From Eledone cirrhosa (Eukaryota): a stretch of 64,000 bases of DNA. Each line of letters opens with the position of its first letter. Within the stretch, counting starts at the first letter, position 1. Below, piece by piece: positions 10,972-64,000 of the stretch. Under the pieces are notes generated by a model. That model saw only the letters and a program-made list of their open reading frames with translations. It made no database searches and had not been told where the DNA came from. Both the position numbers and the translations under genes were made by a program. Location: positions 46,314,001 to 46,378,000 of the forward strand of contig OZ024744.1 of NCBI GenBank assembly GCA_964016885.1, given 5' to 3'.

Positions 10972-13900
10972 TTAATTGTAAGGTGTGATGTTGCTGTTCC
11001 ACTCATATTTTCTATTTAATTTTGGTTGTAATTCTTTTATGTTTATTGCCTCTGTGATTTGTCTAAACATTGCGTCTTTTCTGTGTGTAGATTCTATTTT
11101 TATTTCTATGTTCTCTAATTTACCCCTATGTTCTATTTTAGCATGTTGGTAGAGTACAGATGATTCTTTACTATCTTGAAGGTCTCGCCAGTGTTCATTT
11201 ATCCGTTCCCCTTCACCCACGAGCTGTCTCACCTATGTACACTATATTTTTGTCTCTACATTGTCCTTCAGTACATCTTATGCTATACACTACATTTCTA
11301 GTTTTACAGTTAATATGGGGGCTTATTTTACAGGTTATACATTTCTTATCTATACAGGCGGGTCTTTGAAAAGGGTATGTCTTGCTAATAAGTGTTTTAT
11401 GGAGGTACCTGGTCTTTCTACTATCTTAATATTGAGTTTATGTTTATCTAGGCCCTTCTAAATTTGTAAGCTAATTCACCTCTAGGGGTTGTATCGATGA
11501 ACATTACACTTTGGTATTTATTGCTATCATACCATGAGTTTATTCTATTAGCCTTATTCCTAGTTCTTTCTATTCTATTCCAAAATGTGTTACTATACAA
11601 GGGGCAGGTCACATTTGTGTCATTATTTACCATTTTTTCCTATTTGGTTCTGGCTCCTCTATATACTCTGATTTTATCTCTCTGATTGTAACCAGAGAAC
11701 TGCATACGGTGGATGAAGTGTTGTATGTGACTCTCTAGTTCTTTGGGGTTGAACATGCGGGACACGTTTCTCATCACCCGTACCAAATCCGCAATCAGTA
11801 TATTAATTTTGGTATGGTCCGAAACAGCTGAGTTTCGGTGGATCAGATGTTTGGAAGTCATGGGTTTGGCATAATGGGAATGGAGGATTTGTTTTTTGTT
11901 ATTAATGGTATCTAAGCAGAGCTCTGTGTCTAGTACAGGTAATCGATGGTTGGGGTGTTTACTTGGGTAGTCTATAGTAACTCTAATACTCTGGAGGATG
12001 GAGTTAGCTATTTGCTGGATGCTTTCCATTGTGTTTTTCTCTAGTTCCTGACTGTTCTCTAGTGGGGGTGTCTTAACTACGATGTTTATATCATCAACGT
12101 AGCGGGAGTACATTATCAGAGTTAAGGGGTCTTCTAATTGTTCTTTAAGTTTAAGCTTAAGTCTACTGTCCCACCATACCATGAATAAGTTAGCTATTTC
12201 GCCTGCAATGCTAACACCAATGGCTGCTCCTTCCTCTTGGGCATATGTTTTTCCATTAAATTTGAACATATGTTCCTTAAGGGTTAGTTTTATGCTGGCC
12301 CCTACCGCATGTGCAATCATTTTCTTCAGTTCATCGTGGTTTTCGGGTGTCCGTATGGCTCTGGTCCACCCGTTCCATCTATCTTTGTGGGTTTTCTTGG
12401 CCATTGAGGTAATGGTAGGTGGTCTGCCTCTTGCTGGTCTTGTAGAGCCCAGGTTGCTAAGGTCATATGTGTCTAGGTAATTATTACTATAGGTAAGTTT
12501 AAGTAGGAGTCCCAGCTCACTGGTATCAATCCAACGGAACTCAACATTGCTCTCCCTGATCATTTCTACGCATTTCTCCACAGCAAAATCCACGTCAATA
12601 GATGGATACAGGGACACAACATCCATACTACCTATTATGCAGTTTGTTAGGTCCCTAGATCGATTACTATCGCCGATTCTGCTGAGGAGGTTCTCCGTGC
12701 TGTCACATACATCTGTGGACATTTCAATGATGGGGCGTATGATCAGGGAGAGGAAGTAGGACAGTCTGTAGTTACTAGCAATGTTAGCTCCACAGACTGG
12801 CCGTATTGGTGGTCCCGTGATAGGGTTAATGCCCGTTTTATGGTCTTTTCGAAGCCCATACAACGCCGGCACGTAATTGTTCCAGGCCTGGAAGTTGTTG
12901 GCAGTCCTTTTGTTGGGCTGCATTATATTCGTCCACATCACCATATGGGCATTGAGGGCTTTTTCTCTATCCTCATGCTCCTGTGGTGTTACCTCTCTTG
13001 TGTTAGTGATGTGGGGTTGCATTGCCTGGATGTAGTTTGGCAGGTTGTCAACCGACATTCTGCCAGACTTGTCTGTTGGAAAGCATGCTAGCTCTCCATT
13101 ACGCGAGCGCTGCATGAGCTTACGCAAGCCATTTGCAGATTTTTCTCCCAGTTGCTGGGCCTCCATTCTATTATGCTTCTTGCTATACTGTTCTATAATA
13201 TTTCTAAGTTCGGATCTAGCTATACTAAATTGTGCTTCTGTTTGTTCATCGACCTGCGACGGCAATTGCGTGCGTTTGTTAAATGGTAAAGTCGTGGCGT
13301 GGACTCGTCGCAGGTCAAACGACTTATCGGAGGGATTATAAAAAGTAGATTTTCAGGCTGCTGCTTTATGTGTACTAGTGCTATTGTTATTGTTAGTTGT
13401 TTTGTTTCTATTTCTATTTCCACTAACAGCCTCATGGTTGTTTCTATGTCTCTCATTATTACTCCTGTCTCTTTCCACTGGCTCATTGTTATTATCTACT
13501 CTATTTTGTGTGTCTGTGTGTTCGTCTTTGTTATTTTATTTGTGCCTAGTCTCCCTTCTCCTTTTAATCCTATTACTTTCCCTTATTTCTGTGATTTCTG
13601 TGCTACTGTTATTACTTGTTTTCTGTGTATGTGTGTTTGTTAAGATTGTGGTGGTGGTGAGAGGCATTGAATGTGTGTGTGTTGTTGTTGTTGATGTGTG
13701 TTGTTGTTGTCTCCGTGTGTGTTATTATTGTTGTGTGTGTTGTTATTGTTGTTTGTGTCTGCGTGTCTGTTGTTGTTGTTGTTTCTGAGTATGTTATTAT
13801 TGTTGGTGTGTGTGTTGTTGTTATTGTTGTTTGTGTCTGTGTGTCTGTTGTTGTTGGGATGTGTGTTGTATATGTGTGTGCGTATGTTGTTACTTTTGTT

Positions 13901-14643
13901 TTTGTTTTTGTTTTTGAGGCTCCAACGTAATTTTGTAAATGATTTTTCTATTTCTGACAGACAACTAATCATACTTACCTTCTTGAATGTCGCAAATTTC
14001 GGCGGTAGTTGTAATACAGATAATTCATCAGGATCTATTGCCGTGTTGCCGTATATATTTGTGTTGTTGTTCTTGAACTCATCTGTTAATGAGGTGTGGG
14101 CCATATTTATACCGTCAATTTTGTCGGGATATCTATTGGTATTCTCTACAGTATCCTGATTTAGTTTTATCTGCTTAAGCCACTTTAGTTTCTTGTTAAA
14201 GTGCTTATCACATTCTTGAGCAATATACTGTTCTTCAGGACGTATAAGGCTTATAAATATTAGTTTTTCTCTTGGTGTGGTGATTCTAGTTATTTTTTGT
14301 ATTAGGTTACGCTTATGTTTTTCTTGATGACTTAATTCTCTATAGATCTTTTTATGTTTAGAATTAGTGTTCGTTTTAGCCTATCTGCTTGCTTTTTGGT
14401 GAGTTGTAATCTTCTTGCATCGGTGTTGATGGTGTTGGTGTAGACTCGGGACGAGGCACATTCTTTTATGAAGTGTAGTTGTCGAGATGTCATTGTTTTT
14501 CGTAGACAACAGAACATGGTGGTTTTCAGTATCTTGTTAGCCTAGCTAAGGCTTACGATATTTCGTTTCTGGATTTGTTTAGCAAGATTCTTTATCTGAA
14601 AACGGATGTTGAAACCGATATTTTTATACTTTGGGAGGGTCAT
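10972..14643 (-). pseudogene. PLE family B RT / GIY-YIG ORF, disrupted
   Basis: Starts MTLPKY inside the pLTR. LYGLRKDHK, SMDVVSLYPSI, QEEGAAIG, YSRYVDD, NVVYSI...YIGETAR. Asn-rich insert at about 13300-13920. Several stops and frameshifts. Confidence 0.88.
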
Positions 14644-24167: not shown

Positions 24168-27100
24168 GGCACTTAAGCAGGTAAACAAGAGTGTTAGGTT
24201 GGTTGATCTGATGACAAATTCTTTATATGATTGTTATAGTCTGTGTGTGGAGAAATAATATAAGCATTAAAAATAGTGTAAGCATTAAAAATATTAAAAA
24301 TATTGGAAATGCGCAACGAAGCGATGATATGTACTTCATGCACTTCGACATTTTCATAGTCTGGGGAGCGTATTTTTCAGATTATATGCCCCTCACATAA
24401 TCCACGACGATTCGATATTGAGCGTTTGACAATCCAGTTAGAGAATCGTAGTCTGATGTTCTTTAGTTCAATACAGGAAGATGTTACGTTTCGAGAATCG
24501 ACATCGAAATACTACCCGGAAGTGTGTGTGTGGCTAAGGAGAGTTAATCCATGAGGGGAGGTAACTCCGAGGTCTCTATTACTAACTATTAAAATGTGTC
24601 TCAAAATAGACCCTAACTTATATGATTATAAGCAATTTCTAAAAAATTTCTAAAATTTAAAGTGTTTTAACTATAGAGTAGTCTATTAAGTTGTGCTGAA
24701 GGTGTTCGTATTATTATGGTGTTTAACCCCCATCGTAGAGTGCCACAAATGAATATTATAGACGACGAGCGAGGATTCTAAATTAACGATCTCTGTGGTT
24801 GCAGTCTACTCAAAGGACCAGGCGCGGTTATTGCAGAATCACTTCAACACACTGGTAAGTTCTGGGTCATCGCTTGCTACATTGGATGTCGAAAGATAAT
24901 CATCACCAGGGCCGACCAGAGGTCAATCCACAGTCCCCATGACTCCAATCTGACCATCAAATCATCCATATATGTACAACCCATACGCCACTTGCAATAC
25001 ATTCATTCCCTGCACTCAGCGACATCCCTCTAGAACCCTTCACAGGGGGAATACCCATTTGTACCTCTATTTTAGGTGTGACAACATCCACCCGCTTGAA
25101 CTGCACTACACCGCTCTATAGGTAATTTAAGCATGAATTGATTGTCTTGTTAGTGCTGTGCGCAGGAAGTGCCATCGTTGGACAAATGAAAAACGAATTA
25201 ATCTAGTAACGCTGATGAGCAGTATGACCGGTACGCTGAGTGCAGGGAATGAATGTATTGCAAATGGTGTATGGGTTGTACATATATGGATGATTTGATG
25301 GTCAGATTGGAGTCATGAGGACTGTGGATTGACCTCTGGTCGGCCCTGGTGATGATTATCTTTCGACATCCAATGTAGCAAGCGATAACCCAGAACTTAC
25401 CAGAGATCATTGTGTGTTGAAGTGATTCTGTAATCACCACGCCTGGTACTTTGAGTAGACTGCAACCACAGAGATCGTTAATTTAGAATCCTCGCTCGTC
25501 GTCTATAATATTCATTTGTGGCACTCTACTATGGGGGTTAATCACCATAATAATACGAACACCTTCAGCACAACTTAATAGACTACTCTATAGTTAAAAC
25601 ACTTTAAATTTTAGAAATTTTTTAGAAATGGCGCATAACCATATAAGTTAGGGTCTATTTTGTGACACATTTTAATAGTTAGTAATAGAAACCTCGGAGT
25701 TACCTCCCCTCATGCATTAACTCCCCTTAGCCACACACACACTTCCGGGTAGTATTTCGATGTCGATTCTCGAAACGTAACATCCTCCTGTATTGAACTA
25801 AAGAACATCAGACTACGATTCTCTAACTGGATTGTCAAACGCTCAATATCGAATCGTCGTGGATTATGTGAGGGGCATATAATCTGAAAAATACGCTCCC
25901 CAGACTATGAAAATGTCGAAGTGCATGAAGTCCATATCATCGCTTCGTTGCGCATTTCCAATATTTTTAATATTTTTAATGCTTACACTATTTTTAATGC
26001 TTATATTATTTCTCCACACACAGACTATAACAATCATATAAAGAATTTGTCATCAGATCAACCAACCTAACACTCTTGTTTACCTGCTTAAGTGCCTCTA
26101 CTACACGCAACTCTCTGCCACACTATATAAACAAGACTCACGTGCTTGCCACACATATAACCTTTGCACTATATAACCGCTTATTTTCATGTTGTATCTT
26201 TTAATATGAATGTAATCTCTAAGTGTGTACTGCCACTCTAAATGCTGTAATGAATGTTGACCCACAATATTTGCATATGTATTTGTATGTCTCTTGGGTG
26301 AAAAGGAGGTCATATAAGTGTTCATTCAATAATAAATTGGTCCGAATAAACCAAACCTCGGTTTGGAGGAAACAGTTGTAAGCATAAAAATGTTTTGAAC
26401 AGTTCTTTGATTCTTGTAATTCATATAACTGCCCTGTAAATCATTTGATGTTTTTACATTGAACTACTTAACTTACTGGTAATAAGGTAGTAACATATTA
26501 CTGACTACCACTATTTAGGGTTTGTATAAAAATATATATGACTGCAAAACGTTTTTGTATTTACATAACCATAAATAGTATAATTAATACTATTAACTGC
26601 TCCATATTGTTGAGCTGACATACAATAAATGAACCAATATGCTAATCAAAGACCAACTCCCCATGTCAACCAAGAACATACCAATACCATCCAGGAATAC
26701 ATATGAGAAATTGCTGATCAACAGTGTAAATTCATTTATCAATAGAGTGAGATGGAGGACATTCCATTATGATAGAAACAGATCTAACAATGTTAATAAT
26801 ACTAACAAATTTGACTCCTTCGGCTTTAAAACCTTTAAAAGCCCCCCTCATAACACACTACTTAACTCCTTTGAAAATGACCTAGTTAAACTAGTTAAGA
26901 ACATTAAATACAATGAGCACCATAATAGAAGCAACACCTTCTTAAACAAACTTAACACCTCTATTAATGGATTCAAAACTAGTAATAAAATTATTGTGCA
27001 CGCAGATAAAACTAATAACATATACAGCCTAGATTATAATACTTATAGAAAGTTTATATATAATGAACTACATAAAAGCTACAAGTAGACCACTTTGAAA

Positions 27101-28812
27101 AACTTAGAAGATATTAATATAGAGGGATATAATATAGTGTCTAAACTAGGACTTCAGAGGCATACACAATCATACACCCCAAACCCCCCTAGATTCTCTC
27201 TGAAGGATCACAAGGAGGACTTCATTAGCAACCCCTCGATAAGACTTATCTGCCCTTCCAAGTCCGACATTGGTATTATCAGCAAGAAAATTTTAGATAA
27301 AATCATCCCACAAATTAAACACAAGATACACCTTAAACAATGGGGAAATACTGGTGAAGTTATTGAATGGTTCAAAGATATCAAGAATAATAAGGACAAA
27401 AAATTTATTCAATTTGATATCAATTCATACTACACCTCTATTTCCCCTATCCTATTAAATAAGGCACTAATCATGGCCATGAACAATAGCGACCTGACTA
27501 GAGCCCAGATTGATGTAATCCTTGCGGCCCGTAAAACCATAATCACCTTCGAGGACCAACTATGGACACGCAAGGATACGCACAACAACTTCGACATAAC
27601 CATGGGATCTAGTGACTCGGCGCAGCTCACTGATTTGGTCGGCCTATACCATCTTAATGAAATCCATAAGGACCTCCCTTACCTCAACGGTGGTTTGTAC
27701 CGCGATGATGCACTTCTACTTATAGAATATAAAAAAATTAATATAGAAAGAACTAGAAAACTATTGCACAAGACATTCACAAATTTTAACCTTAGTATCA
27801 CCATGGACAAAAACATTAAAAATGTTAACTTCCTAGACGCCACACTATACCTAGACTCAAAAATATATACACCTTTCCATAAGCCTAAAGAAAAACTCAT
27901 TTACGTAGATACCAAGTCTAATCACCCTAGATCAATATTAAACTCTATCTCTAAGGGGGTATCCAATAGAATCTCTAATCTATCCTATGACGCAAACATA
28001 TTTAGCAAAAACTCACAATATTATAATCAAGCATTAGCTAGATCCGGCCATAATATAGAAATTGAGTTCCTACCTAAGAAAACGCATAGCTACAACATAA
28101 TCTCGCACAACATGTCCATGAGGAAACCTAATAATAGGAATAGCAACCACAAGTACACCAAAGCGGAGGGTGCCACCGGAAGTAACCATTACCGCGGAAA
28201 CTACCGTAGTACCTTAGGAAGAAACAACACACCAAACACTAAAAACAAAAAAAGAAGAAATAATACATTTTTCAACCCTCCTTTCAACCTAAATGTCTCC
28301 ACCAACATACCTAGGGCTTTCTTCTCACTACTAGATAAAACTTCCCTCTAGGACACAAGTACCACAACCTTTTAAACAAAAACACTATTAAAATCTCATA
28401 ATCTACGACGCCTAACTTAGCATACCACATAGCTAGCAGCAATAAAAGTAAAATTAATTCTTACTTCCAAAAAACGAAATCACAACAGGAGGTAAACCTT
28501 CTAAATACCTCTGCAGCAAGCAACCATAGTAACGGCAGTAACAATAGAAATAACACTAGTATAAGAAATAACACCGGGGTCGACAACCCGAATGTCCAAA
28601 ATCCTATAGCTGTACTGCCACTCTAAATGCTGTAATGAATGTTGACCCACAATATTTGCATATGTATCTGTATGTCTCTCGGGTGAAAAGGAGGTCATAT
28701 AAGTGTTCGTTCAATAATAAATTGGTCCGAAGAATCCAAACCTCGGTTTGGAGGAAACAGTTGTAAGCATAAAAATGTTTTGAACAGTTCTTTGATTCTT
28801 ATAATTCATATA
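24168..28812 (+). mobile_element. PLE family C (Hydra-clade-like): inverted 3'-UTR arm plus sense copy with EN deleted
   Basis: 24168-25020 is inverted relative to 25235-26097. The ORF from 26639 jumps at about 28610 directly to the terminal pLTR segment. Confidence 0.88.
26639..28610 (+). pseudogene. PLE family C RT, disrupted
   Basis: RLICPSKSDIG, QFDINSYYTSI, FDITMGSSDSAQ, GLYRDDAL. Stop at 27086-27088 and frameshift at about 28340. Confidence 0.88.
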
Positions 28813-36634: not shown

Positions 36635-38806
36635 ATTAAAATAAAAGATTAAAGTTTAAGCAAAGAATCGCTGCTTTCACCCTTAACGGGATCTTCTGAA
36701 ACGAACAAAGTCAATCTGTAAACGCAGAACTGGATATTTCAAAAAACGTTGCACCCGGAGGAAGACAGGAAGACGATACTTTGGTTCGTGGACACGTTCG
36801 CTGGCAAAGAACGGGAAAAAACGAATAATACGTCATTAATAGGAGCGGTGAAAAACAATTACGCGCAAAGACAGAACCACGTTTATGGTATAAAAGAGGT
36901 CGTAGACTAATGTTCTCTTAGGTGGTGCATAGAGACGTTCTCTGGCAATGAACGAAAAAACGAAGATAATAAGTCATATGTGGAGCGTGGAGAACAATAG
37001 CACGCACAGACAAGACCACGTAAATGGTATAGCAGAAGTCGTAGACTAAAATTCTAACTAGGAGACCGAATGAATCTCCGCTACAGAGTTAAGAACAAAG
37101 TAAATAAATACAATACAGAAGTAATAGAAATAAATAAATACATACACGCAAACAAATACGTACATACACAAGCATACGCAAAAACTTACCATAGGTAAAC
37201 AAAACCACGCACATATAAATATGTGTGTGTGTGTATGCGTGTATACAAATAAATAAATAATTATACAAACGTATATAAATAAATAAATACGTATATAACA
37301 AGCGCACACACATACCTACATGTAAATACACGAATGTTCGGAGACGTAAGTCAACCAAACCATGAAGTACACATATACACACGCCCTACATACGTACGAA
37401 CCTGCATACTCACACAGACAAAAGACCCGTATACACATAGCCGAACCATATGTACCAGAATATATAAAAAAATTATACGCCATAACAATCAAATATACGT
37501 ACGAGAAGGTATACATACCTTCACAAAACATACGGGTAATATATACTTACCTATGCAAATAAGTAAAGGTATAAACAAAACATATACTTAGCTCCCACAT
37601 CAAGACGTAAAATATCCACGTATAGATCGTACTCTCCGTTAGCGTATAACGTGGGGCTGTAATACAGGAAAGTTTTGGGCAATTTAAGTTTACAAGCCGA
37701 AATTGCATCAGATTTTTTGTTTAAGATGCGGTCTGTGGCGTAGAGTATTTCCAGGGCCTCAGCGGTGCAGAGATCACATGGTCTTTTATTTCCGTTATAC
37801 GTTCTAGCCCTATCTAGGATCTCCCAGTGTAACTTATATTGGGTGTGGTTGTCTTTTAGACTCCAGATATAAGCTGAAAGTGACGTCATATTCCTTCTTA
37901 GAGGGTAACGAAAAGAATGGGTATGCATGTAAAGACGCTGCTTGAAACTATTGGCGGTTAACTCTATGTAGGCCCTACGGGACGTGGGTGTTACAACCCT
38001 ACATTGTAGACAATGTTACTAGAGAGGCATTTCCCGGATGGGGGGCAATCAACCCGATTCCTACAATTACAGTTAGTACTAACTACAGGGTTGCACGTGT
38101 TCCTACGGCTAGATAGTTTAGCTAAATTTGAAGCTGTAATGTTATGTGCAAGTTTAGGAGTCGTAGAGTAAGAAATTTTAATAGTATTTCTATTAAAAAT
38201 GTTACCATATTTATGTGTAGGAGGAAAATGCTTCGTAATAAGGGAAAGAAAGATCTTAGCTAATGGTGTGGCCACCTCCATATTATATGGTGGGTTATAC
38301 CAACAAATGCGACGGGATCTATTTCTACTAGGTCTATTTTCGTACTCTGTATATGCTACCTTATCGACAAATCCACTTCGAGCAAGAGCTTCATTGTAAT
38401 AAGTGGAATGGTCGTTGAAAATACGCTCGTTGGTGGAAAGACGGGAAAGCCTCAAAGAAATGTTTCTTACCAGGTTCTTGGTTATGCTGGCAGGATGGTT
38501 GGAATGCTTACTTATGTAATTAAGCGTATCATTCGGCTTTCTATACGGGTAATACAACCCATTCAATAAGTTGAGGGTAACGTCGAGGTAATTAACAACC
38601 GAGAGATTGGCCTCAACCTGTATAGAGAGGTTGAAGCCTTTAAAGAAGGCTGTGAGTTCTTTTCTGAACCTGTCGCAAGCACGAGGTCCGCACTTAGTCA
38701 TGGTCAAAAGACCATCGTCACGGTACAAACCACCGCCTGCGTTGGGGAATTCGTCCTTGATAGAGAAAAGAAGGAAAAGGCTGATAAGATCAGTAACCTC
38801 CGCAGA
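36635..38806 (-). mobile_element. PLE family I (Hydra-clade-like), 5'-truncated
   Basis: GLYRDDGL, WYNPPY, CNCRNRVDCP (CxCx5C), TSLSAYIWSLK..LHWEI, CDLCTAE, ILNKKSD. Frameshift near 37960. Confidence 0.88.
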
Positions 38807-38866
38807 ATATAAATATATATATATATAAATATATATATAAATATATATATATGTATAAATATATAT

Positions 38867-38903
<37 letters not shown>

Positions 38904-38911
38904 AATATATT

Positions 38912-39778
38912 TAATACAGAGAAAGCTTTAAGCTATACTCTGACTGGCTTCCATCTCACTCAACAAACATTAGGATATACCTTAGTATAATCCCAATTTT
39001 ACGTTTGGGGTGCTAACTATATGTATTTCGCGGAAAGCCAGTTGTATTATTTTATATAAGACATAATTAAAATATATCTCCCTTTCCAAACAATTGTTTC
39101 ATTATAAGTTTTCTACAAGTTGGGAAAATGTGTCCACATCGATATTCCGTCAAACATCGATATGTAGTAGCCTGCATATATTCCGTCAAACATCGATATC
39201 AAAAAAACTCTCTTACCGATGTCCAATCCAATGTTAGCGATGGTCCCTCTCCGTATCAGAATGACCGCCAAATTTGAAATTCCAGCAGTCTCAGAATGAG
39301 AAATTTCACACTGTCATCAAGCGGAAAGGGTAGGTCATCGCGAAACATAAGAAAGTAAAATAATATACACGCGGGTCAATTAATTTTTTCAACAATTTTA
39401 ACCTTGCGTGTGAAGAACTCAATTAGATTTTTAAAAAAATTAAAATATGCATGTATTATTTATACATGCATATAGGTATTTTCTTAGGCTAAAAACAGAG
39501 ATGTGATACCAGAAAAACTATCAATATTTCATAGTAATAATAAATACGGAAAGTTACGCTTAAAAGGTATCTGGAAATATTCATCTCAGGCCAAATGAAG
39601 AGTATAATATTTAATACATTAACAGAGAAAGCTTTAAGTTATACTCTGACTGGCTTCCATCCCACTCAACAAACATTAGGATATACCTTAGTATAATCCC
39701 AATTTTATGTTTGGGGTGCTAACTATATGTATTTTGCGGAAAGCCAGTTGTATTATTTTTTATCAGACATAATTAATA
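38912..39778. repeat. ORF-less unit with ~155-bp direct terminal repeats (period ~706)
   Basis: 38916-39070 matches 39622-39776; (TA)n flanks. Confidence 0.8.
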
Positions 39779-41964: not shown

Positions 41965-44900
41965 TATTGTTATACTTTGGGAGGGTCATGTTGCCAATAA
42001 GAAACACACGCACCAGTTGCTTTCACTTCAATTTATTATAATAAATATATAATAAATTTATAAATTTATAAATTTCTGATTGGTTGGTTGGTTCCACAAC
42101 CAGATAGTTGTTTATATATTGTCATAGTTCTTTCGTCACAAACTCTGTGACCTCTTCAGTGACTGGGGATTCCTTTCTTTGTTTTTCTGCCTCTCCTTTG
42201 TTCTGTCCGACGCCATTTTGTTTCTCTGTGTGTGTTGTGTGCTCAGTCTGCGCATGCGCCACATCCGGGTGTCTGTGTGTGTTTATGTTCATTTATTTAT
42301 TTGTTTATTTACATGTTACTGGTTGGTTGTTTGTTCTATGTGTGTGTGTGTTTTCATTTTGTCCTTAATTGTAAGTTGTGCTGTTGCTGTTCCACTCATA
42401 TTTTCTATTTAATTTTGGTTGTAATTTTTTTATGTTTATTGCCTCTGTGATTTGTCTAAACATTGCGTCTTTTCTGTGTGTAGATTCTATTTTTATTTCT
42501 ATGTTCTCTAATTTACCCCTGTGTTCTATTTTAGCATGTTGGTAGAGTACAGATGATTCTTTACTATCTTGAAGGTCTCGCCAGTGTTCATTTATCCGTT
42601 CCCCTACACTACGAGCTGTCTCACCTATGTACACTATATTTTTGTCTCTACATTGTCCTTCAGTACATCTTATGCTATACACTACATTTCTAGTTTTACA
42701 GTTAATATGGGGGCTTATTTTACAGGTTATACATTTCTTATCTATACATGACGGTCTTTGAAACGGGTATGTCTTGCTAATAAGTGTTTTTCCGGAGGTA
42801 CCAGGTCTTTCTACTATCTTAATATTGAGTTTATGTTTATCTAGGGCCCTTCTGAATTTGTAAGCTAATTCACCTCTAGGGGTTGTATCGATGAACATTA
42901 CACTCTGGTATTTATTGCTATCATACCATGAGTTTATTCTATTAGCCTTGTTCCTAGTTCTTTCTATTCTATTCCAAAATTTGCTCCTATACAAGGGGCA
43001 GGTCCCATTTATGTCATTGTTTACCATTTTTCCCAATTGGTTCTGGCTCCTCTATACACTCTGATTTTATCTCTCTGATTATAGCCAGAGAACTGCATAC
43101 GGTGGATGAAGTGTTGTATGTGTCTCTCTAGTTCTTCGGGGTTGCACATGCGGGACACGTTTCTCATCACCCGTACCAAATCCGCAATCAGTATGTTGAT
43201 TTTGGTATGGTCCGAAACGGCCAAGATTCGGTGGATCAGATGTTTGGAAGTCATGGGTTTGGCATAATGGGAATGGAGGATTTGTTTTTTGTTATTAATG
43301 GTATCTAACCAGAGCTCTGTGTCTAGTACAGGTAATCGATGGTTGGGGTGTTTACTTGGGTAGTCTATATTAAGTCTAATACTCTGGTGGATGGAGTCAG
43401 CTACTTGCTGGATGCTTTCCATTGTGTTTTTCTCTAGTTCCTGATTGTTCTCTAGTGGTGGTGTCTTAACTACGATGTTTATATCATCAACGTAGCGGGA
43501 GTACATTATCAGAGTTAAGGGGTCTTCTAATTGTTCTTTAAGTTTAAGTTTAAGTCTACTGTCCCACCATACCATGAATAAGTTAGCTATGTCGCCTGCA
43601 ATGCTAACACCAATGGCTGCTCCTTCTTCTTGGGCATATGTTCTTCCATTAAATTTGAACATATGTTCCTTAAGGGTTAGTTTTATGCTGGCCCCTACCG
43701 CATGTGCAATCATTTTCTTCAGTTCATCGTGGTTTTCGGGTGTCCGTATGGCTCTGGTCCACCCGTTCCATCTATCTGTGTGGGTTTTCTTGGCCATTGA
43801 GGTAATGGTAGGTGGTCTGCCTCTTGCTGGTCTTGTAGGGAACAGGTTGCTAAGGTCATATGTGTCTAGGTAATTATTACTATAGGTAAGTTTAAGTAGG
43901 AGTCCCAGCTCACTGGTATCAATCCCACGGAACACAACATTGCTCTCACTGATCATTTCTACGCATTTCTCTACAGCAAAATCCACATCAATAGATGGAT
44001 ACAGGGACACAACATCCATACTACCTATTATGCAGTTTGTTAGGTCCCTAGATCGGTTACTCTCGCCGATTCTGCTGAGGATGTCCTCCGTGCTGTCACA
44101 TACATCTGGGGACATTTCAATGATGGGGCGTATGATCAGGGAGAGGAAGTAGGACAGTCTGTAGTTACTAGCAATGTTAGCTCCACAGACTGGCCGTGTT
44201 GGTGGTCCCGCGACAGGGTCACTGCCCGTTTTATGGTCTTTTCGAAGCCCATACAACGCCGGCACGTCATTGTTCCAGGCCTGGAAGTTGTTGGCAGTCC
44301 TTTTGTTGGGCTGCATTATATTCGTCCACATCACCATATGGGTATTGAGTGCTTTTTCTCTATCCTCATGCTCCTGTGGTGTTACCTCTCTTGTGTTAGT
44401 GATGTGGGGTTGCATTGACAGGATGTAGTTTGGCAGGCTGTCAACCGACATATTCTGCCAGACTTGTCTGTTTGAAAGCATGCTATCTCTCCATTACGAG
44501 AGCGCTGCATGAGCATACGCAAGCCATTTGCAAATTTTTCTCCCAGTTGATGGGCCACCATTCTATTATGTTTCTTGCTATACTGTTCTATAATATTTCT
44601 AAGTTCGGATCTAGCTATACTAAATTGTGCTTCTGTTTGTTCATCGACCTGCGACGGCAATTGCGTGCGTTTGTTAAATGGTAAAGTCGTGGCGTGGACT
44701 CGTCGCAGGTCGAACGATTTATCGGAGGGATTATAAAAAGTAGAGTTCCAGGCTGCTGCTTTATGTGTACTAGTGCTATTGTTATTGTTAGTTGTGTTGT
44801 TTCTATTTCTATTTCCACCAACAGCCTCATGGTTGTTTCTATGTCTCTCATAATTACTCCTGTCTCTTTCCACTGGCTCATTGTTGTTATCTACCCTATT

Positions 44901-45800
44901 TTGTGTGTCTGTGTGTTCGTCTTGGTTATTTTCTTTGTCCTTAGTCTCCCTTCCCCTTTTAATCCTATTACTTTCCCTTATTTCTGTGATTTCTGTGCTA
45001 CTGTCATTACTTGTTTTCTGTGTCAGTGTGTTTGTTAAGATTGTGGTGGTGGTGAGAGGCATTGAATGTGTGTGTGTTGTTGTTGTTGATGTGTGCTGTT
45101 GTTGATGTGTGTTGTTATCTCCGTGTGTGTTATTATTGTTGTGTGTGTTGTTATTGTTGTTTGTGTCTGCGTGTCTGTTGTTGTTGTTTCTGGGTATATT
45201 ATTATTGTTGTTGTTGTTAGTGTTGGTGTGTGTGTTGTTATTATTGTTGTTTGTGTCTGTGTGTCTGTTGTTGTTGGGATGTGTGTTGTATATGTGTGTA
45301 CGTATATTGTTACTTTTACAGCAATATCACAACTTACAATTAAGGACAAAATGAAAACACACACACGCATAGAACAAACAACCAACCAGCAACATGTAAA
45401 TAAACAAATAAATAAATGAACATAAACACACACAGACACCCGGATGTGGCGCATGCGCAGACTGAGCACACAACACACACACAGAAAAAAAATGGCGTAG
45501 GACAGAACAAAAGAGAGGCACAAAAACAAAGAAAAGAATCCCCAGTCACTGAAGAGGTCACAGAGTGTGTGACAAAAGAACAATGACAAAATATAAACAA
45601 CTATCTGGTTGTGGAACCAACCAACCAACCAGAAATTTATAGATTTATAAATTTATTATAAATTTATTATAATAATTTGAAGTGAAAGCATCGGTGCGTG
45701 TGTTTCTTATTGGCAACATGACCCTCCCAAAGTATAACAATATCGGTTTCAACAGACGATTTCAGATAAATAATCTTGCTAAACAATTTCAGAAACGAAA
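41965..45800 (-). mobile_element. PLE family B, 5'-truncated, with inverted tailed pLTR (45317-45800)
   Basis: RT (YSRYVDD) at 43021-44481 and GIY-YIG at 42365-43036; the long arm lacks the tail. Confidence 0.92.
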
Positions 45801-50919: not shown

Positions 50920-53347
50920 CTATATATTGGGCTTAAAGTTTTGGAAGGAATGTCTGAAGCGGTGCTGGCAAGTTGCAAACACTTCAGATTTTTTGTTAAG
51001 TAGGTTACGGTTAGAGAAGATAATATTGTGGGTCTGTAGTATACAGAGGTTACAAAATTTATTAGGTGGTTTGTACGAAGTCGCGCTACCTATCACTTCC
51101 CATTTGAGTGTGTAAGGTTTATTTTTAGTTTTTAGATAGTGTATGTAGCTAGATAGTGAGGTGGAGTTGGCTAGACTGTGCTTTTTGAACGAGTGGATGT
51201 GCGAATTATATCTGATTTTGAAGCAGGTAGAAGTGGAGCCTACATAGGTTTCTGAAGAGTTGCTATTTGTGACGGTGCATGAGTATATGATATCCTTGGT
51301 TAGGCATTTTTCATCTAAAAGGCAGGTTCTATTAGCTCTACAGTTACAATTATCCTGTGTGTTAGTCTGCTGGTTATAATGCAGTGCAGAAGTCTGGGTG
51401 GTAGCTATAGGATTTTGGACATTCGGGTTGTCGACTCCGGTGTTATTTCTTATACTAGTGTTATTTCTATTGTTACTGCCGTTACTATGGTTGCTTGCTG
51501 CAGAGGTATTTAGAAGGTTTACCTCCTGTTGTGATTTCGTTTGTTGGAAGTAAGAATTAATTTTACTTTTATTGCTGCTAGCTATGTGGTATGCTAAGTT
51601 AGGCGTCGTAGATTATGAGATTTTAATAGTGTTTTTGTTTAAAAGGTTGTGTTACTTGTGTCCTAGAGGGAAGTTTTATCTAGTAGTGAGAAGAAAGCCC
51701 TAGGTATGTTGGTGGAGACATTTAGGTTGATAGGAGGGTTGAAAAATGTATTATTTCTTCTTCTATTTTTGTTTTTAGTGTCTGGCGTGTTGTTTCTTCC
51801 TAAGGTACTACGGTAGTTTCCGTGGTAATGGTTACTTCCGGTGGCACCCTCCGCTTTGGTGTACTTGTGGTTGCTATTCCTATTATTAGGTTTCCTCATG
51901 GACATGTTGTGCGAGATGATGTTGTAGCTATGCGTTTTCTTAGGTAGGAACTCAATTTCTATATTATGGCCGGATCTAGCTAATGCTTGATTATAATATT
52001 GTGAGTTTTTGCTAAATATGTTTGCGTCATATGATAGATTAGAGATTCTATTGGATACCCCCTTAGAGATAGAGTTTAATATTGATCTAGGGTGATTAGA
52101 CTTGGTATCTACGTAAATGAGTTTTTCTTTAGGCTTATGGAAAGGTGTATATATTTTTGAGTCTAGGTATAGTGTGGCGTCTAGGAAGTTAACATTTTTA
52201 ATGTTTTTGTCCATGGTGATACTAAGGTTAAAATTTGTGAATGTCTTGTGCAATAGTTTTCTAGTTCTTTCTATATTTTTTTTTTATATTCTATAAGTAG
52301 AAGTGCATCATCGCGGTACAAACCACCGTTGAGGTAAGGGAGCTCCTTATGGATTTCATTAAGATGGTATAGGCCGACCAAATCAGTGAGCTGCGCCGAG
52401 TCACTAGATCCCATTGTTATGTCGAAGTTGTTGTGCGTATCCTTGCATGTCCATAGTTGGTCCTCGAAGGTGATTATGGTTTTACGGGCCGCAAGGATGA
52501 CATCAATCTGGGCTCTAGTCAGGTCGCTATTGTTCATGGCCATGATTAGTGTCTTATTTAATAGGATAGGGGAAATAGAGGTGTAGTATGAGTTGATATC
52601 AAATTGAATACATTTTTTGTCCTTATTATTCTTGATATCTTTGAACCATTCAATAACTTCACCCGTTGTTTAATTTGTGGGATGATCTTATCTAAAATGT
52701 TCTTGCTGATAATACCAATGTCGAACTTGGAAGGGCAGATAAGTCTTATCGAGGGGTTGCTAATGAAGTCCTCCTTATGATCCTTCAGAGAGAATCTAGG
52801 GGGTTTGGGTGTATGGTTGTGTATGCCTCTGAATTCCTAGTTTAGACACTATATTATATCCCTCTATATTAATATCTTCTAAGTTTTTCAAAGTGGTCTT
52901 CTTGTAGCTTTTATGTAGTTCATTATATATAAACTTTCTATAAGTATTATAATCTAGGCTGTATATGTTATTAGTTTTATCTGCGTGTACAATAATTTTA
53001 TTACTAGTTTTGAATCCATTAATAGAGGTGTTAAGTTTGTTTAAGAAGGTGTTGCTTCTATTATGGTCCTTATTGTATTTAATGTTCTTAACTAGTTTAA
53101 CTAGGTCATTTTCAAAGGAGTTAAGTAGTGTGTTATGAGGGGGGCTTTTAAAGGTTTTAAAGCCGAAGGAGTCAAATTTGTTAGTATTATTAACATTGTT
53201 AGATCTGTTTCTATCATAATGGAATGTCCTCCATCTCACTCTATTGATAAATGAATTTACACTGTTGATCAGCAATTTCTCATATGTATTCCTGGATGGT
53301 ATTGGTATGTTCTTGGTTGACATGGGGAGTTGGTCTTTGATTAGCAT
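50920..53347 (-). pseudogene. PLE family C RT / GIY-YIG ORF, disrupted
   Basis: GLYRDDAL, CNCRANRTCL (CxCx5C), DIIYSC...YVGSTS, YTLKWEV, CNLCIL, LLNKKSE. Several frameshifts. Confidence 0.88.
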
Positions 53348-56359: not shown

Positions 56360-59828
<3,469 letters not shown>

Positions 59829-59834
59829 ATATAA

Positions 59835-59869
<35 letters not shown>

Positions 59870-59871
<2 letters not shown>

Positions 59872-62655
59872 GAAAATAAACCAAAGAAGCCTTCAATACA
59901 TCAAAAGTCTTTATTAGCCAACAATGTTTCGTCCTATTAAGGACTCATCAGGGCAACTAAAGCTATAAGAAGCACTATCAGCCAATACAAGCCGAAAACT
60001 CAGAAGAATATGGAGTGTACATAGATTAAATCATAAGAAAATAATCACGTAAAAATTATCAAGTAAAAAATTATCAAGTGAAAATTGCTAAGGAAGTAAG
60101 TAACATTTTGAACCATATTACAAATATAGTCCAATGCAAAAACTAGAGCTAAAACAGAGGTGTTGATATAGAGCGGGAATTATTGTACTATATATAATAT
60201 AATATAATATAATATAATATAATATAATTAATAATGATAATAATAATAATGTTAAAAGGCCCAATATACATATATATATATAAATATGTACACATATATA
60301 CATATATATATCAATACATATTTCCATCAATAGAAGCACAAACTAACCCTTATTAAGAGTTTAAATATAAATAATAATAATAATAATAATAAAAATAAAT
60401 AAAAATACAAATGAAAATAAAATTAAAATATAATACATATAAAATTTACAGTATAAAATGAAGAATAAATGATTAAAAGTAAGCATAAAAAATATAATAA
60501 ACTATATAATTATATAATAGATAATCTCCGGTTAATTTGCACAAACAATATAAGCGTTACAATAACACTAAAATCACAATATTATAATATAATGGCATAT
60601 AACTTAACAAATCATATAGAGTTACAGTCAGGGCGAGAAAAAAATTGTACAGAACTAAAATATTTTTTCATGCAGTTAAGTAAAAAATTTAGGAAACAAA
60701 CCCGGATAAATGACTAGAAAACCCTATTAAATTAATTAATATTGAAAGTACTTAAAATACATAAGTCCATACAAAATTAGCTATGGTTTAAGTAATCAAA
60801 ATCCCCGAATTTAAAGAAATCACTATAAAAATATATCTGGAAAAAATGAAATATTCAACTATCAGTAGAATAACGTTATCTAATAAACAGGCTTTTAATA
60901 GAGTTATGGTAGGCCAATGGGGACAGAAAAAAGAAATGTATGGAGGATATGAAAGAGCATAAAATCATAATCAACATACTGTATTATACAATAGAAAGGA
61001 GCGTAAAAGGGAATTGGATATAATTATAGTATATTTGAAGGGGCGAGTGACAAGTATGTATGTGTGTGTGTGGGGGGGGGGGGGTTTAGTTATCCAAAGA
61101 AGAATCCAAATAAAATAAAATAGAATAATATAAAATAAAATAAAATATATAATCAGATATAAACTCATAAGGTGTTAATAGTGAAAATATAATATTTAAG
61201 AAGATAGAAATGGTATGGTAGCCAAAAGATTATGGAAGCTATAATGAAAAGCTGTCAAAAGCCAATGATAAAAATGATGATAATGATGGTGGTAAACATA
61301 ATAAACCTTAACTAAAAAGATAAGGGAATGTGTAGCAGCTAATGGATACAATTTACACTACTAGAACCTTTAGGTTTATAATAAAAGTAAGAATTTGAAA
61401 TGGCCTGGGGGCAAGAAGAGAATATCTCAGACTTCCTATTAAGTAAGGTTTCCCTAGAGAAAATTATAGAGTGGGTCTCAAGGATACAGAGATTGCAAAA
61501 TTTAGTATGTGTTGAAAGGTTATTCGAGCGTGCTACTATACGCCAACTAAGGCTATATGGTATATTAGCCCCCTTAAGATCCCAGATATGGTGTGCTAAA
61601 GAAGTAGAATTCTTAAACTTAACATGTTTAAAATTAGAGATATGAGAATTAAACCTAGTCTTAAAAGTGTTAGATGTAGAGCCTATATACGTGCTATTAA
61701 GAGAATTAGTTTTAACCACACAAGCATAAACGATGTTCTTGGAGAGGCAGTTACCGTTTAAAGGGCAGTTAGCACTCACTCTACAGTTACACTTCCGGGT
61801 GTTATTGATCGGCTGAAGTAGTGATATATCGCACGTAGGATTACTATGAGATAAAGTCTGCTCTGGTGGTAAGGCATTTACGGATCTATTCTGACTAGTA
61901 GTACGTAGAGAGGAGTATCCATCCCTAATTTTCCCATTGTTTGTGCTAGCTAAATGAGAACTAATATTAGGGGTGGTAGAGAATGAAAGTTTAATTACAT
62001 AAGTATTTAGTCTCCTTCTATTTTTATCCTTACCAACTCTACCGTTATTTAATGTCCTATTATTAAGATTTGGGTTACTACAAGGGTTAGTTAAAACCGC
62101 ATTACTTGAATCAGCCGAAACTCGATTAAGTCTCTTTCTGTTTCTACCTCTAGTATATTTGCCGCCATCTGGAGTCATATCAAAAGGATTAGGGCCAATA
62201 ATAGGATCAGTAGAAACAACATTATTAGAATTAGGTATATCAAAAGTATTACCAATGGGTGAGCGTTCAGAGGGCTCGACTTGATTCCTAGGAGTATTAG
62301 ATTCTCTGCTACGAGTCCGGTGACTTAACCCATGGATGGGTTCAGATACACCTATGTGATTTCTACGATTCTTATGCTTTCTACTCCCATTCATGGCCAT
62401 ATTATGGGATATTATGTTATTATTATTATAAGTAAGCGGAGACTTTCTAAGGTTACTATTATTATAATGTATTTTACCAGAGTAACCTGAGTTAGCTAAG
62501 GCATTATTATAGTACTCTGCATGTGCATTAAATATTCCTACGTCCTTAGAGAGTGTGGAAATCCTATTAGATACACCATTAATTATAGAGCGTATCATAG
62601 ATTTGGGGTGGTTAGAATTTGGACTAACATAAGAGAGTATTTCATTAGGCTTATG
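59870..62655 (-). mobile_element. PLE family J (Hydra-clade-like) 3' half with long 3' UTR
   Basis: CNCRVSANCP, NIVY...YIGST..FKTRF, CNLCILE, LLNRKSE; hammerhead followed by AATAAA at the end. Confidence 0.85.
59916..59955 (-). ncRNA. Canonical minimal hammerhead ribozyme, family J
   Basis: gcc-CTGATGA-GTCC-ttaata-GGAC-GAAA-cattg-tt-ggc. Confidence 0.85.
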
Positions 62656-63999
62656 ATCAATGATCATCTCAATGATCATCTCCACACATCTTTCCACACA
62701 TCTTTTCACAGCAAAATCAATGTTAATGGATGGGTACAGTGACACCACATCCATGCTGCCTATTATGCAGTTGGATAGGCTCCTGTTTTTGTTGCACTCA
62801 CTGATTCTGCTGAGGAGGTCCTCTGTACTTTCACATACATCTGGGGACATCTTGATTATGGGGCGTATAACCATTGAGAGGAAGTAGGAGATCCTGTAGT
62901 TGATAGCTATATTAGCTCCGCATACGGGTCTTGTTGGTGGTCCTGTTGTCGGGTCGTCGACTGTCTTGTGGTCTTTGCGGAGCCCATACAAGGGTGGTAT
63001 GCCATTGTTAGACGCCTGGAAGTTGTTGGCAGTGCGTCTGCTTGGCTTTAGGATGTTAGTCCACATCATCATGTGAGCGTTGAGGATTTTTTCTCTCCCA
63101 TCGTGTGTTTGTTGTGCAACTTCGCTCGTGTTGGTGATGTGGGGTTGCATAGCCTCGATGTAGTTCGGCATGCTATCTATTGACATCCTACCAGACTTAT
63201 CTGTGGGTAGACACACTACCTCACCATCCCTTGTGCGCTGCTTGAGGCTAACCAAGCTTTCTACAGGTTTCCTCCCAAGTTGTTGGGCCTCTGGTCTGCT
63301 CTGTCTCTTAGTATACCTGTCTACTACTTGTCTAATCTTATTTCTAGCTATGGTGAACTGTGCCTCTGTCTCGTCATCTATTTGTTGTGGTATGCAAACT
63401 CTTTTATTAAATGGTAACCTCGTAGGATAGATATTACCCATCTTATATGTTTTGTCGGCTGGGTTGAAAAATAGTTTTTCTAAGGGGTTGTCATTATATC
63501 TATCGTCATAGTTGTGTGTGTTGCTATTGTTGTTATCAGGGTGGTTGTTGTTGTTTCTATCATTAGCATTATTATTATTGTTATGATTGCTAGATGTATT
63601 GTTGTTTACTTCACCGTTATTGTTGTTGTTGTTACTGTTATTTCTACCATTGTGGTTGTTACTTTTATTATGTTTCTTGTTTTTGTTGATGTTGCTACAT
63701 GTACTATTTCCATTATTACCACTGTGGTTATTGTTGTTGTTGTTCGTATTGTTACCGTTACTACTACTGTGGTCGCTGTTGCTGTGTCTGTGGTTAATGT
63801 TTCTATTATTATTATTATTGTGGTTGTTGTTGTTCTGTCTATCGCTAGTATTATTACCATTATCACTATTTCTCACTTTCCTGCCATTGTTATGGTTCTG
63901 GCTGTTATTTCTATACCCATAGTTATTGTTTATATTACTACTACCGTTATTATTGTTGTTGTTGTTGTTTACCTTTGCATTCCAACGTATTTTTGTGAA
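61339..63999 (-). CDS. Chimeric PLE ORF: family-B-like N-half fused to Hydra-like thumb + GIY-YIG, no YxDD
   Basis: Frame open to the window edge (FTKIRW...). B-like up to SMDVVSLYPSI...CVEMII, then HKPNEILSYVSPNSNHPKS. Confidence 0.8.
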   Translation of the reverse strand, partial: FTKIRWNAKVNNNNNNNNGSSNINNNYGYRNNSQNHNNGRKVRNSDNGNNTSDRQNNNNHNNNNNRNINHRHSNSDHSSSNGNNTNNNNNNHSGNNGNSTCSNINKNKKHNKSNNHNGRNNSNNNNNNGEVNNNTSSNHNNNNNANDRNNNNHPDNNNSNTHNYDDRYNDNPLEKLFFNPADKTYKMGNIYPTRLPFNKRVCIPQQIDDETEAQFTIARNKIRQVVDRYTKRQSRPEAQQLGRKPVESLVSLKQRTRDGEVVCLPTDKSGRMSIDSMPNYIEAMQPHITNTSEVAQQTHDGREKILNAHMMMWTNILKPSRRTANNFQASNNGIPPLYGLRKDHKTVDDPTTGPPTRPVCGANIAINYRISYFLSMVIRPIIKMSPDVCESTEDLLSRISECNKNRSLSNCIIGSMDVVSLYPSINIDFAVKRCVERCVEMIIEMIIDHKPNEILSYVSPNSNHPKSMIRSIINGVSNRISTLSKDVGIFNAHAEYYNNALANSGYSGKIHYNNSNLRKSPLTYNNNNIISHNMAMNGSRKHKNRRNHIGVSEPIHGLSHRTRSRESNTPRNQVEPSERSPIGNTFDIPNSNNVVSTDPIIGPNPFDMTPDGGKYTRGRNRKRLNRVSADSSNAVLTNPCSNPNLNNRTLNNGRVGKDKNRRRLNTYVIKLSFSTTPNISSHLASTNNGKIRDGYSSLRTTSQNRSVNALPPEQTLSHSNPTCDISLLQPINNTRKCNCRVSANCPLNGNCLSKNIVYACVVKTNSLNSTYIGSTSNTFKTRFNSHISNFKHVKFKNSTSLAHHIWDLKGANIPYSLSWRIVARSNNLSTHTKFCNLCILETHSIIFSRETLLNRKSEIFSSCPQAISNSYFYYKPKGSSSVNCIH

Positions 64000-64000
64000 A

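Follow-up and report, generated by a model that had tools for sequence, protein, structure and literature searches.

Here we describe a composite retroelement locus in a 64,000-nucleotide (nt) stretch of the Eledone cirrhosa genome (G000:C28:46314001-46378000, forward strand of a 3.0-Gb assembly; hereafter the window). Its long open frame is a fusion of two Penelope-like elements (PLEs), in which the 5' half of a Nematis-type PLE (family B) is joined in frame at 62655 to the 3' half of a Hydra-clade PLE (family C). We consider the locus, with a probability of about 0.68, to be a single-copy composite of three hammerhead-motif-bearing retroelement families, the third being a retrozyme-like 470-bp tandem repeat, which likely formed when a DNA end in C sequence primed reverse transcription inside B RNA, and whose open frame is likely a matter of luck. 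CUGAnGA...GAAA cores are carried by all three families. Chimeric retroelement loci are already known; what is unusual here is the cast of families.

The composite measures ~7 kb, is bounded by (TA)n on both sides, and lies on a 136-Mb contig. Positions past 64000, called extended, carry the window numbering on, and position n lies at C28:46314000 + n. The parts are as follows.

59827-59866, no strand: (TA)n-rich tract, forming the left edge of the composite and bordering the C 3' end; in copies L065 and L067, TA likewise begins at this terminus or a few bases from it.
59867-61338, minus strand: family C 3' untranslated region (UTR) / pseudo-long terminal repeat (pLTR), with its natural 3' terminus at 59867 and a 393-nt deletion at ~60667.
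59897-59967, minus strand: putative hammerhead-ribozyme-like motif of C, recognized by its CUGAUGA core (59951), stem II, and GAAA.
61339-61791, minus strand: Hydra-type CxCx5C linker and GIY-YIG endonuclease, placed by alignment; CxH reads CxQ at 61405.
61792-62655, minus strand: what remains of the family C thumb, with a low-complexity linker; the 5' truncation is at reference position 1428.
61999-62000, minus strand: in-frame deletion of 114 nt, equal to 38 amino acids (aa), with 2-nt AT microhomology and no GT-AG.
62653-62704, minus strand: B/C junction, with CAT microhomology at 62653-62655, a TGATCAT stutter, and two adjacent B 12-mers, each doubled.
62657-64000 (frame to extended 64731), minus strand: family B 5' half, with an Asn-rich stretch and the N-terminal reverse transcriptase (RT) motifs to motif A (SMDVVSLYPS).
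To extended 64731, minus strand: main B copy, B reference 1918 back to 1.
Extended 64628-66624, minus strand: upstream B copy, 5'-truncated and frame-broken, reference 4098 back to 2085, carrying a pLTR.
Extended 64934, minus strand: hammerhead-like motif in the upstream B copy, by core pattern.
Extended 66621-66736, plus strand: inverted B 3' end of 116 nt.
Extended 66733-66880, plus strand: retrozyme-like fragment of 148 nt from the 470-bp tandem repeat, followed by (TA)n.

The switch between two PLE families, which the original prediction had placed at about 62655, was borne out by the genomic matches on either side. When the query spanned the join (62400-62900), one match was full and 39 of the 39 others followed the C side only, to ~62655 (40 scored of 1,366 candidates). 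With a query covering 62640-63450, all 39 other matches began at 62690-62693, each at 99% (40 scored of 2,189 candidates). A 45-nt junction pattern allowing up to 3 mismatches had 1 match in the whole assembly, so that the check proposed with the original prediction showed no further genomic copy besides this locus in 3.0 Gb. Because the junction exists in one copy, the proposed endonuclease-only element family is not supported; the several dispersed copies sharing a junction that would mark a non-autonomous family are lacking.

Two 12-nt tandem duplications had also been predicted, and both are present, at 62657-62680 and 62681-62704, in none of the 19 B parents compared. The B parents have the order A12-B12-GAGTGAGG, where A12 is AAGATGTGTGGA and B12 is GATGATCATTGA; the chimera reads A12-A12-B12-B12-T-CATAAGCC, and the C parent at the join reads CCCTTC-CATAAGCC. 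The bases common to B and C are CAT alone. TGATCAT, formerly taken for microhomology, is instead a further partial repeat of B12 and thus a third stutter of B sequence. Every stutter lies within 30 nt of the B entry point, a pattern that repeated false starts of synthesis would leave.

The B tandem copy, the inverted end, and the retrozyme-like piece lie beyond the window and hence outside the original prediction. In permuted order, the direct B sequence makes up 96% of a 4,126-nt unit; it breaks off at reference 1918 and resumes at 2085, leaving a 166-nt gap that we noticed after the fact. The missing B 3' half was not found downstream, on which ground a plain nested insertion of C into B was rejected, and B's own endonuclease survives solely in the broken upstream copy. 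At the outer edges, the C 3' end and the retrozyme-like 3' end both face outward into (TA)n. The retrozyme-like fragment, which has a 12-nt deletion, ends where copy L084 also enters TA. Its source repeat, in which each 470-bp tandem unit has a type I hammerhead core, occurs as a long array (G000:C1:95620990-95682694) and as dispersed copies (L080-L090), with 1,351 first-look candidates.

Such an arrangement was not seen among the other B insertions compared: 0 of 20 are joined directly to C or to the retrozyme-like repeat (0/40 ends; 95% upper bound 7%). These insertions enter TA at 18 of 20 5' ends and 19 of 20 3' ends (counts that include the short TA tracts of L123 and L074, below the 5-repeat rule), whereas the B of the composite is capped by another family at both ends. 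Separately, L069 (G000:C3:38809500-38819499) holds a B insertion with a 2.8-kb inverted arm and a 1,084-aa open frame. The wider locus strengthens the case that two PLE families were joined during reverse transcription: three families are present, both outer ends are natural 3' ends in (TA)n, and B is permuted at near-unit length.

We propose that a DNA end in family C sequence annealed via CAT inside a family B RNA and primed reverse transcription. The RT would have made three false starts, giving TGATCAT and the two 12-mers, and would then have copied B from 1918 to the B 5' end. It may next have crossed the pLTR join, by way of a tandem transcript, an end-to-end jump, or a circular RNA, before ending at 2085. 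For the opposite DNA strand, priming on a retrozyme-like RNA could have been followed by a jump to the B 3' end. The C end may be nascent cDNA of the same event, i.e. a true template switch, at odds that we judge somewhat short of even; a more doubtful source is a truncated C copy that was already present in this (TA)n tract and whose 5' edge provided the end. The original prediction of template switching between PLE RNAs is thus a good candidate, but an RNA-to-RNA switch is indistinguishable from priming off an older genomic C copy. These steps have counterparts in other systems. LINE (long interspersed nuclear element) RTs perform template jumping, add non-templated A's, and generate multi-part chimeras (PMC8857657, PMC2104539), and template jumps and circular templates have been proposed for PLEs (PMC3846280, PMC4209133).

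The layout of the B side, with inverted, truncated, and full-length pieces, is also the ordinary one of L071-L074, and B and C both end in (TA)n and hence cluster. B may accordingly have been joined as DNA: a complete B insertion would have come first, and then either C entered the (TA)n tail of B and removed ~2.2 kb of B as its own 5' end was attached, or a later microhomology-mediated deletion united neighbouring B and C. Templated insertions are a feature of end-joining repair, and the stutters would be of this kind. At R1/R2 5' junctions, where cDNA joins target DNA, a 3-nt microhomology and a duplicated flank are known, and deletions also occur (PMC2718515); in Adineta, microhomology deletions disable Penelope copies (PMC3846280). 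B copies interrupted at the 3' side exist as well (L028, L043). Joining as DNA, however, does not account for the missing B 3' half, which is nowhere downstream, and under it both the near-unit-length permutation and the presence of the retrozyme-like piece as a second foreign cap would be coincidences. Insertion of C after B further requires a younger C, and the C part is not younger than the B parts: by the strict count, which takes changes found in no other copy, rare differences number 22/3,728 in B (0.59%) and 23/2,748 in C (0.84%; p 0.29), and by the relaxed count 26/3,923 (0.66%) and 35/2,748 (1.27%; p 0.013). These figures speak against an insertion of C into an older B and are compatible with C already being present. 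We therefore regard the joining of B as DNA as unlikely.

A number of points weigh against reverse-transcription joining in a single event, or against our account of the open frame. Both ends of the composite lie in (TA)n, where a target-site duplication is unreadable, and a single event is therefore not proven. R1/R2 junctions show a like signature (PMC2718515), so the junction alone does not name the RNA acceptor. The copies compared were the top matches by identity and no random sample. The C half shows a synonymous excess, for which the multi-copy source lineage that would explain it was not found at the 3 of ~9 sites tested. Finally, no contig (runs X1-X5) or raw read (X15) among the pieces listed bridges the junction; parental continuations alone were seen, and the join thus rests on the assembly.

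The missing bridge is what an assembly or read chimera of a B copy and a C copy would give. An artefact would, however, have to arise where B and C share just 3 nt and would have to create a filler of new, locally templated sequence; private variants stand on both sides of the join, the termini are natural ones in (TA)n, and the contig measures 136 Mb. Moreover, the missing bridge is not evidence of absence, and the sequencing runs seem to differ from the assembly: for 231 sampled words the best share was 0.44, and at 62592 the runs mostly show a letter other than the majority letter of this genome. We give an artefact the least credence of the explanations considered. Nearby, at window 62872-62902, contig joints in runs X1 and X3 go back with short fillers such as GGGAGGGTCAT that match the B pLTR; these are other B copies with templated junctions.

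We then turn to the frame itself. The predicted open frame of at least 886 codons was recovered at 61339-63999, on the minus strand; with the neighbouring stretch it comprises 1,130 codons to extended 64731, 244 of them beyond the window end. Its first ATG, at extended 64710, gives 1,123 aa. The RT motifs B and C were expected to be absent, and indeed both parents' versions (QNEGAAIG / YVDD; VTMGS / YRDD) are missing, so the fusion lacks the intact RT core with YxDD that characterizes an autonomous endonuclease-containing PLE. Pfam returned 0 families on the entire fusion, with no RVT_1 match. Parents with long open frames and YxDD do exist (L005, 911 aa; L010, 931 aa; L041, 1,047 aa).

The endonuclease had been described as intact. 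GIY/YIG, R, E, N, CxxC, and CxCx5C are indeed retained, but the CxH His, found in 4/4 comparison sequences (two siblings and two other nearby Hydra-like families), is Gln here, a private replacement. The excised domain matched Pfam GIY-YIG with an E of 0.0011 and 19.6 bits, below the 22.6 cut-off. The predicted ~38-aa deletion near 62000 proved to be in frame and to take out the FNPPY...KYH block; this locus alone spanned it among 40 scored of 643 candidates. The deletion in the C 3' UTR, which has a short A-rich filler, was absent from the original prediction. Spliced introns were rejected as the cause of both C deletions, since the ends are not GT-AG and one has a 2-nt microhomology and the other an A-rich filler. 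This C part has 2 deletions of at least 40 nt versus 10 in 40 other C copies (Poisson p 0.026). Of the 37 C truncation points listed, 11 fall between 1000 and 1550, around the 1428 of this copy. The product, if made, is predicted to be a protein without RT activity whose endonuclease domain lacks one conserved putative zinc ligand.

A frame of this length might encode an endonuclease without RT that is, or is becoming, functional under selection, as a host-exapted protein or as the starting point of a non-autonomous family; this is suggested by the native B pLTR and ATG upstream, the native C 3' end, and the 1,123 open aa. Counts based on paralogues bear on this. The C half has 8 synonymous and 3 replacement changes in the strict count versus 99:274 plus 9 stops in 41 other rows (binomial p 0.0016), the top ratio of 42; the relaxed count (own subfamily, one sharer allowed) gives 9:8 versus 50:116 plus 5 stops (Fisher p 0.056), and L102 also shows 8:7 in this count. 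The whole frame stands at 10:10 or 12:15 (p ~0.02-0.03 against 26%). The B half, however, is neutral, with 2 synonymous and 7 replacement private changes, and the total load of the C frame equals that of the C UTR (0.84% versus 0.84% strict; 1.29% versus 1.26% relaxed). As synonymous changes in C are in excess and total changes are not depleted, inherited divergence of the source lineage fits better than selection in place. Three synonymous C alleles occurred in 1, 2, and 1 places in the assembly, and their sole sharer, L132, is a distant copy (87-91%). We conclude that there is no convincing selection on the fusion; the synonymous excess in C is weak and count-dependent, and its simplest explanation is inheritance from a source copy outside the sample.

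Further points argue against function. The junction is single copy, and the CxH and the conserved 38-aa block are lost. In a protein search restricted to lengths of 487-1551, 33 database proteins matched fusion residues 340-560, all on the B side and none beyond residue 474, with the join at 449; 0 of the 33 cover both sides and none reaches the C half. The two named matches are from Octopus vulgaris. None of the sequencing runs containing sampled sequence is recorded as RNA, which is not evidence of absence. The exapted protein of the original prediction is thus opposed by the neutral B half, the lost His, and the lack of a fused database protein, the synonymous excess in C being its sole support, and we consider a functional fusion highly improbable.

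Chance is a likely explanation of the open frame. The original prediction had set the luck required at about 1/81 by counting four events, but the duplications are part of the junction and are not counted separately; only two net registers count, that of the junction (1/3) and that of the deletion (1/3), which gives ~1/9. It had also held that most other long open frames of transposable elements here are broken. This is true of the old elements in the window but not of the siblings that matter here: among 24 copies holding the C half, 12 have it open; the B N-terminal RT part is open in 16/19; and for the whole B 5' half the figure is 3 of 6, counting only copies that truly hold the start and leaving out 9 in which the start motif belonged to the 3' pLTR repeat. 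The probability that 23 substitutions produce no stop is 0.52. Open frames are common in these young families, consistent with the frame being luck; with ~1/9 for the two registers and roughly 1/2 per side for staying open, one case among so many copies is unsurprising.

The assignment of family C follows the description of Hydra-clade PLEs, including the CxCx5C linker, in PMC8557442. C resembles them in its C-terminal GIY-YIG, the CxCx5C linker before it (CNCRVSANC in the chimera and the C parent), the CxxC before E, DKT, and RW(R), as well as in its hammerhead-like motif, its (TA)n targets, and the lack of a CCHH, none being seen in the endonuclease alignment. The C parent L005 has LADKTK and RIRWR, both outside the piece kept in the chimera. 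The CxxC/CxH pair around E and N is present in the C parents; the chimera keeps CxxC but not CxH. A putative hammerhead core at 59951 and TA at the 3' end indicate the expected ribozyme motif and insertion type. Rfam placed HH9 at 59897-59967 with 25.6 bits and an E of 0.015, under the gathering score of 52, and stem II folds; both PLE hammerhead stretches gave weak folding z-scores (-1.46 and -1.12). The other 11 Rfam matches were discarded as sub-threshold small-RNA matches, mostly on (TA)n. Unlike Hydra-clade elements, the chimera has the 3' part only, from the thumb onward, with 114- and 393-nt deletions and CxQ, and its C 5' end meets a B open frame where those elements have TA or an inverted C piece.

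Family B resembles Nematis-type PLEs in DKSG, YVDD, a short Cx4CxxC-x7-C linker, and a CCHH endonuclease, and in having pLTRs in tandem with an inverted 5' piece and a hammerhead-like motif. CTNRKCIIC-x7-C and C-x4-C...H...H occur in most of the 7 B parents compared. By eye, the linker spacer fits the Nematis rows of Fig. S2 in PMC8557442, where the Neptune spacer is much longer, and we call B Nematis-type on the linker alone; the B-family motif words were not found in the PMC8557442 supplement as searched. Unlike such elements, the main B copy here is cut just after RT motif A.

In the Magnaporthe WEIRD/Mg-SINE/MGL chimeras (PMC2104539), the copies of several transcripts are likewise fused directly at one locus, which was ascribed to RT template switches. 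The present locus differs from these in uniting two PLE clades and a retrozyme-like RNA, in a join that lies inside two coding regions and in frame, and in being single copy, with its target-site duplication unreadable. U6-L1 chimeras, among the LINE chimeric retroelements, are reportedly due to RT template switches as well. Non-LTR retrozymes (bioRxiv 10.64898/2026.07.22.740005) share the 470-bp tandem unit and the type I hammerhead core with the third family; here, unlike there, a 148-nt fragment without the ribozyme is fused to a PLE end. A search of literature titles and abstract openings, to which most subscription papers were outside coverage, found no description of an in-frame fusion between PLE clades.

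Among the 5' ends of 40 other C copies, most join an inverted C piece or TA, 2 join other sequence, and 1 (L067) joins a B-like 3' end. In the latter (L067:2860-8235, G000:C2:194975859-194981234), the B-like 3' end (82% to B), which carries a pLTR and a hammerhead-like motif, meets C directly with no TA; the C copy is nearly full length, from reference 107, such that a foreign pLTR stands before the Hydra open frame, and this junction is also single copy. The same sequence has a 724-aa open frame on the minus strand (L067:1-2172) that looks like what we take to be a hAT-type transposase.

Several other elements surround the composite. A LINE with AP-endonuclease and RT (Pfam Exo_endo_phos_2, RVT_1) lies at window 56530-59825 on the minus strand, its 5' end abutting the (TA)n tract that the C 3' end also enters; we presume it to be RTE-like. 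Broken B-like and Hydra-like PLE copies occur within 75 kb (window 11640-14380, 26633-28351, 37991-38932, 42365-45326, and 50920-52283; L021:5309-7184), and among the broken PLE copies in this range are at least 2 other Hydra-like endonuclease types.

PLE clades have been proposed to have acquired or exchanged endonucleases several times, and an in vitro PLE retrotransposition system was still to be established (PMC8557442). Tentatively, the locus may record one PLE insertion event that copied three RNAs in turn (Hydra-clade, Nematis-type, and retrozyme-like), B possibly from a circular RNA, and that placed a Nematis N-terminus in frame ahead of a Hydra endonuclease; it would then be a snapshot of the exchange of endonucleases and pLTRs hypothesized from phylogeny, with the L067 join hinting at recurrence. 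The composite RNA retains a C 3' end, and its mobilization in trans is conceivable; no daughter copy of the composite was found in the assembly. As a gene, the fusion has little weight, given its one copy, lack of RT, and lack of convincing selection; as a mechanistic trace it has modest value. Had the join fallen downstream of the RT core in B, a hybrid element with a working RT would presumably have resulted. The many young Hydra, Nematis-type, and retrozyme-like copies in this genome allow cross-family junctions to be counted and jumps of the PLE RT between heterologous hammerhead-bearing RNAs to be tested.

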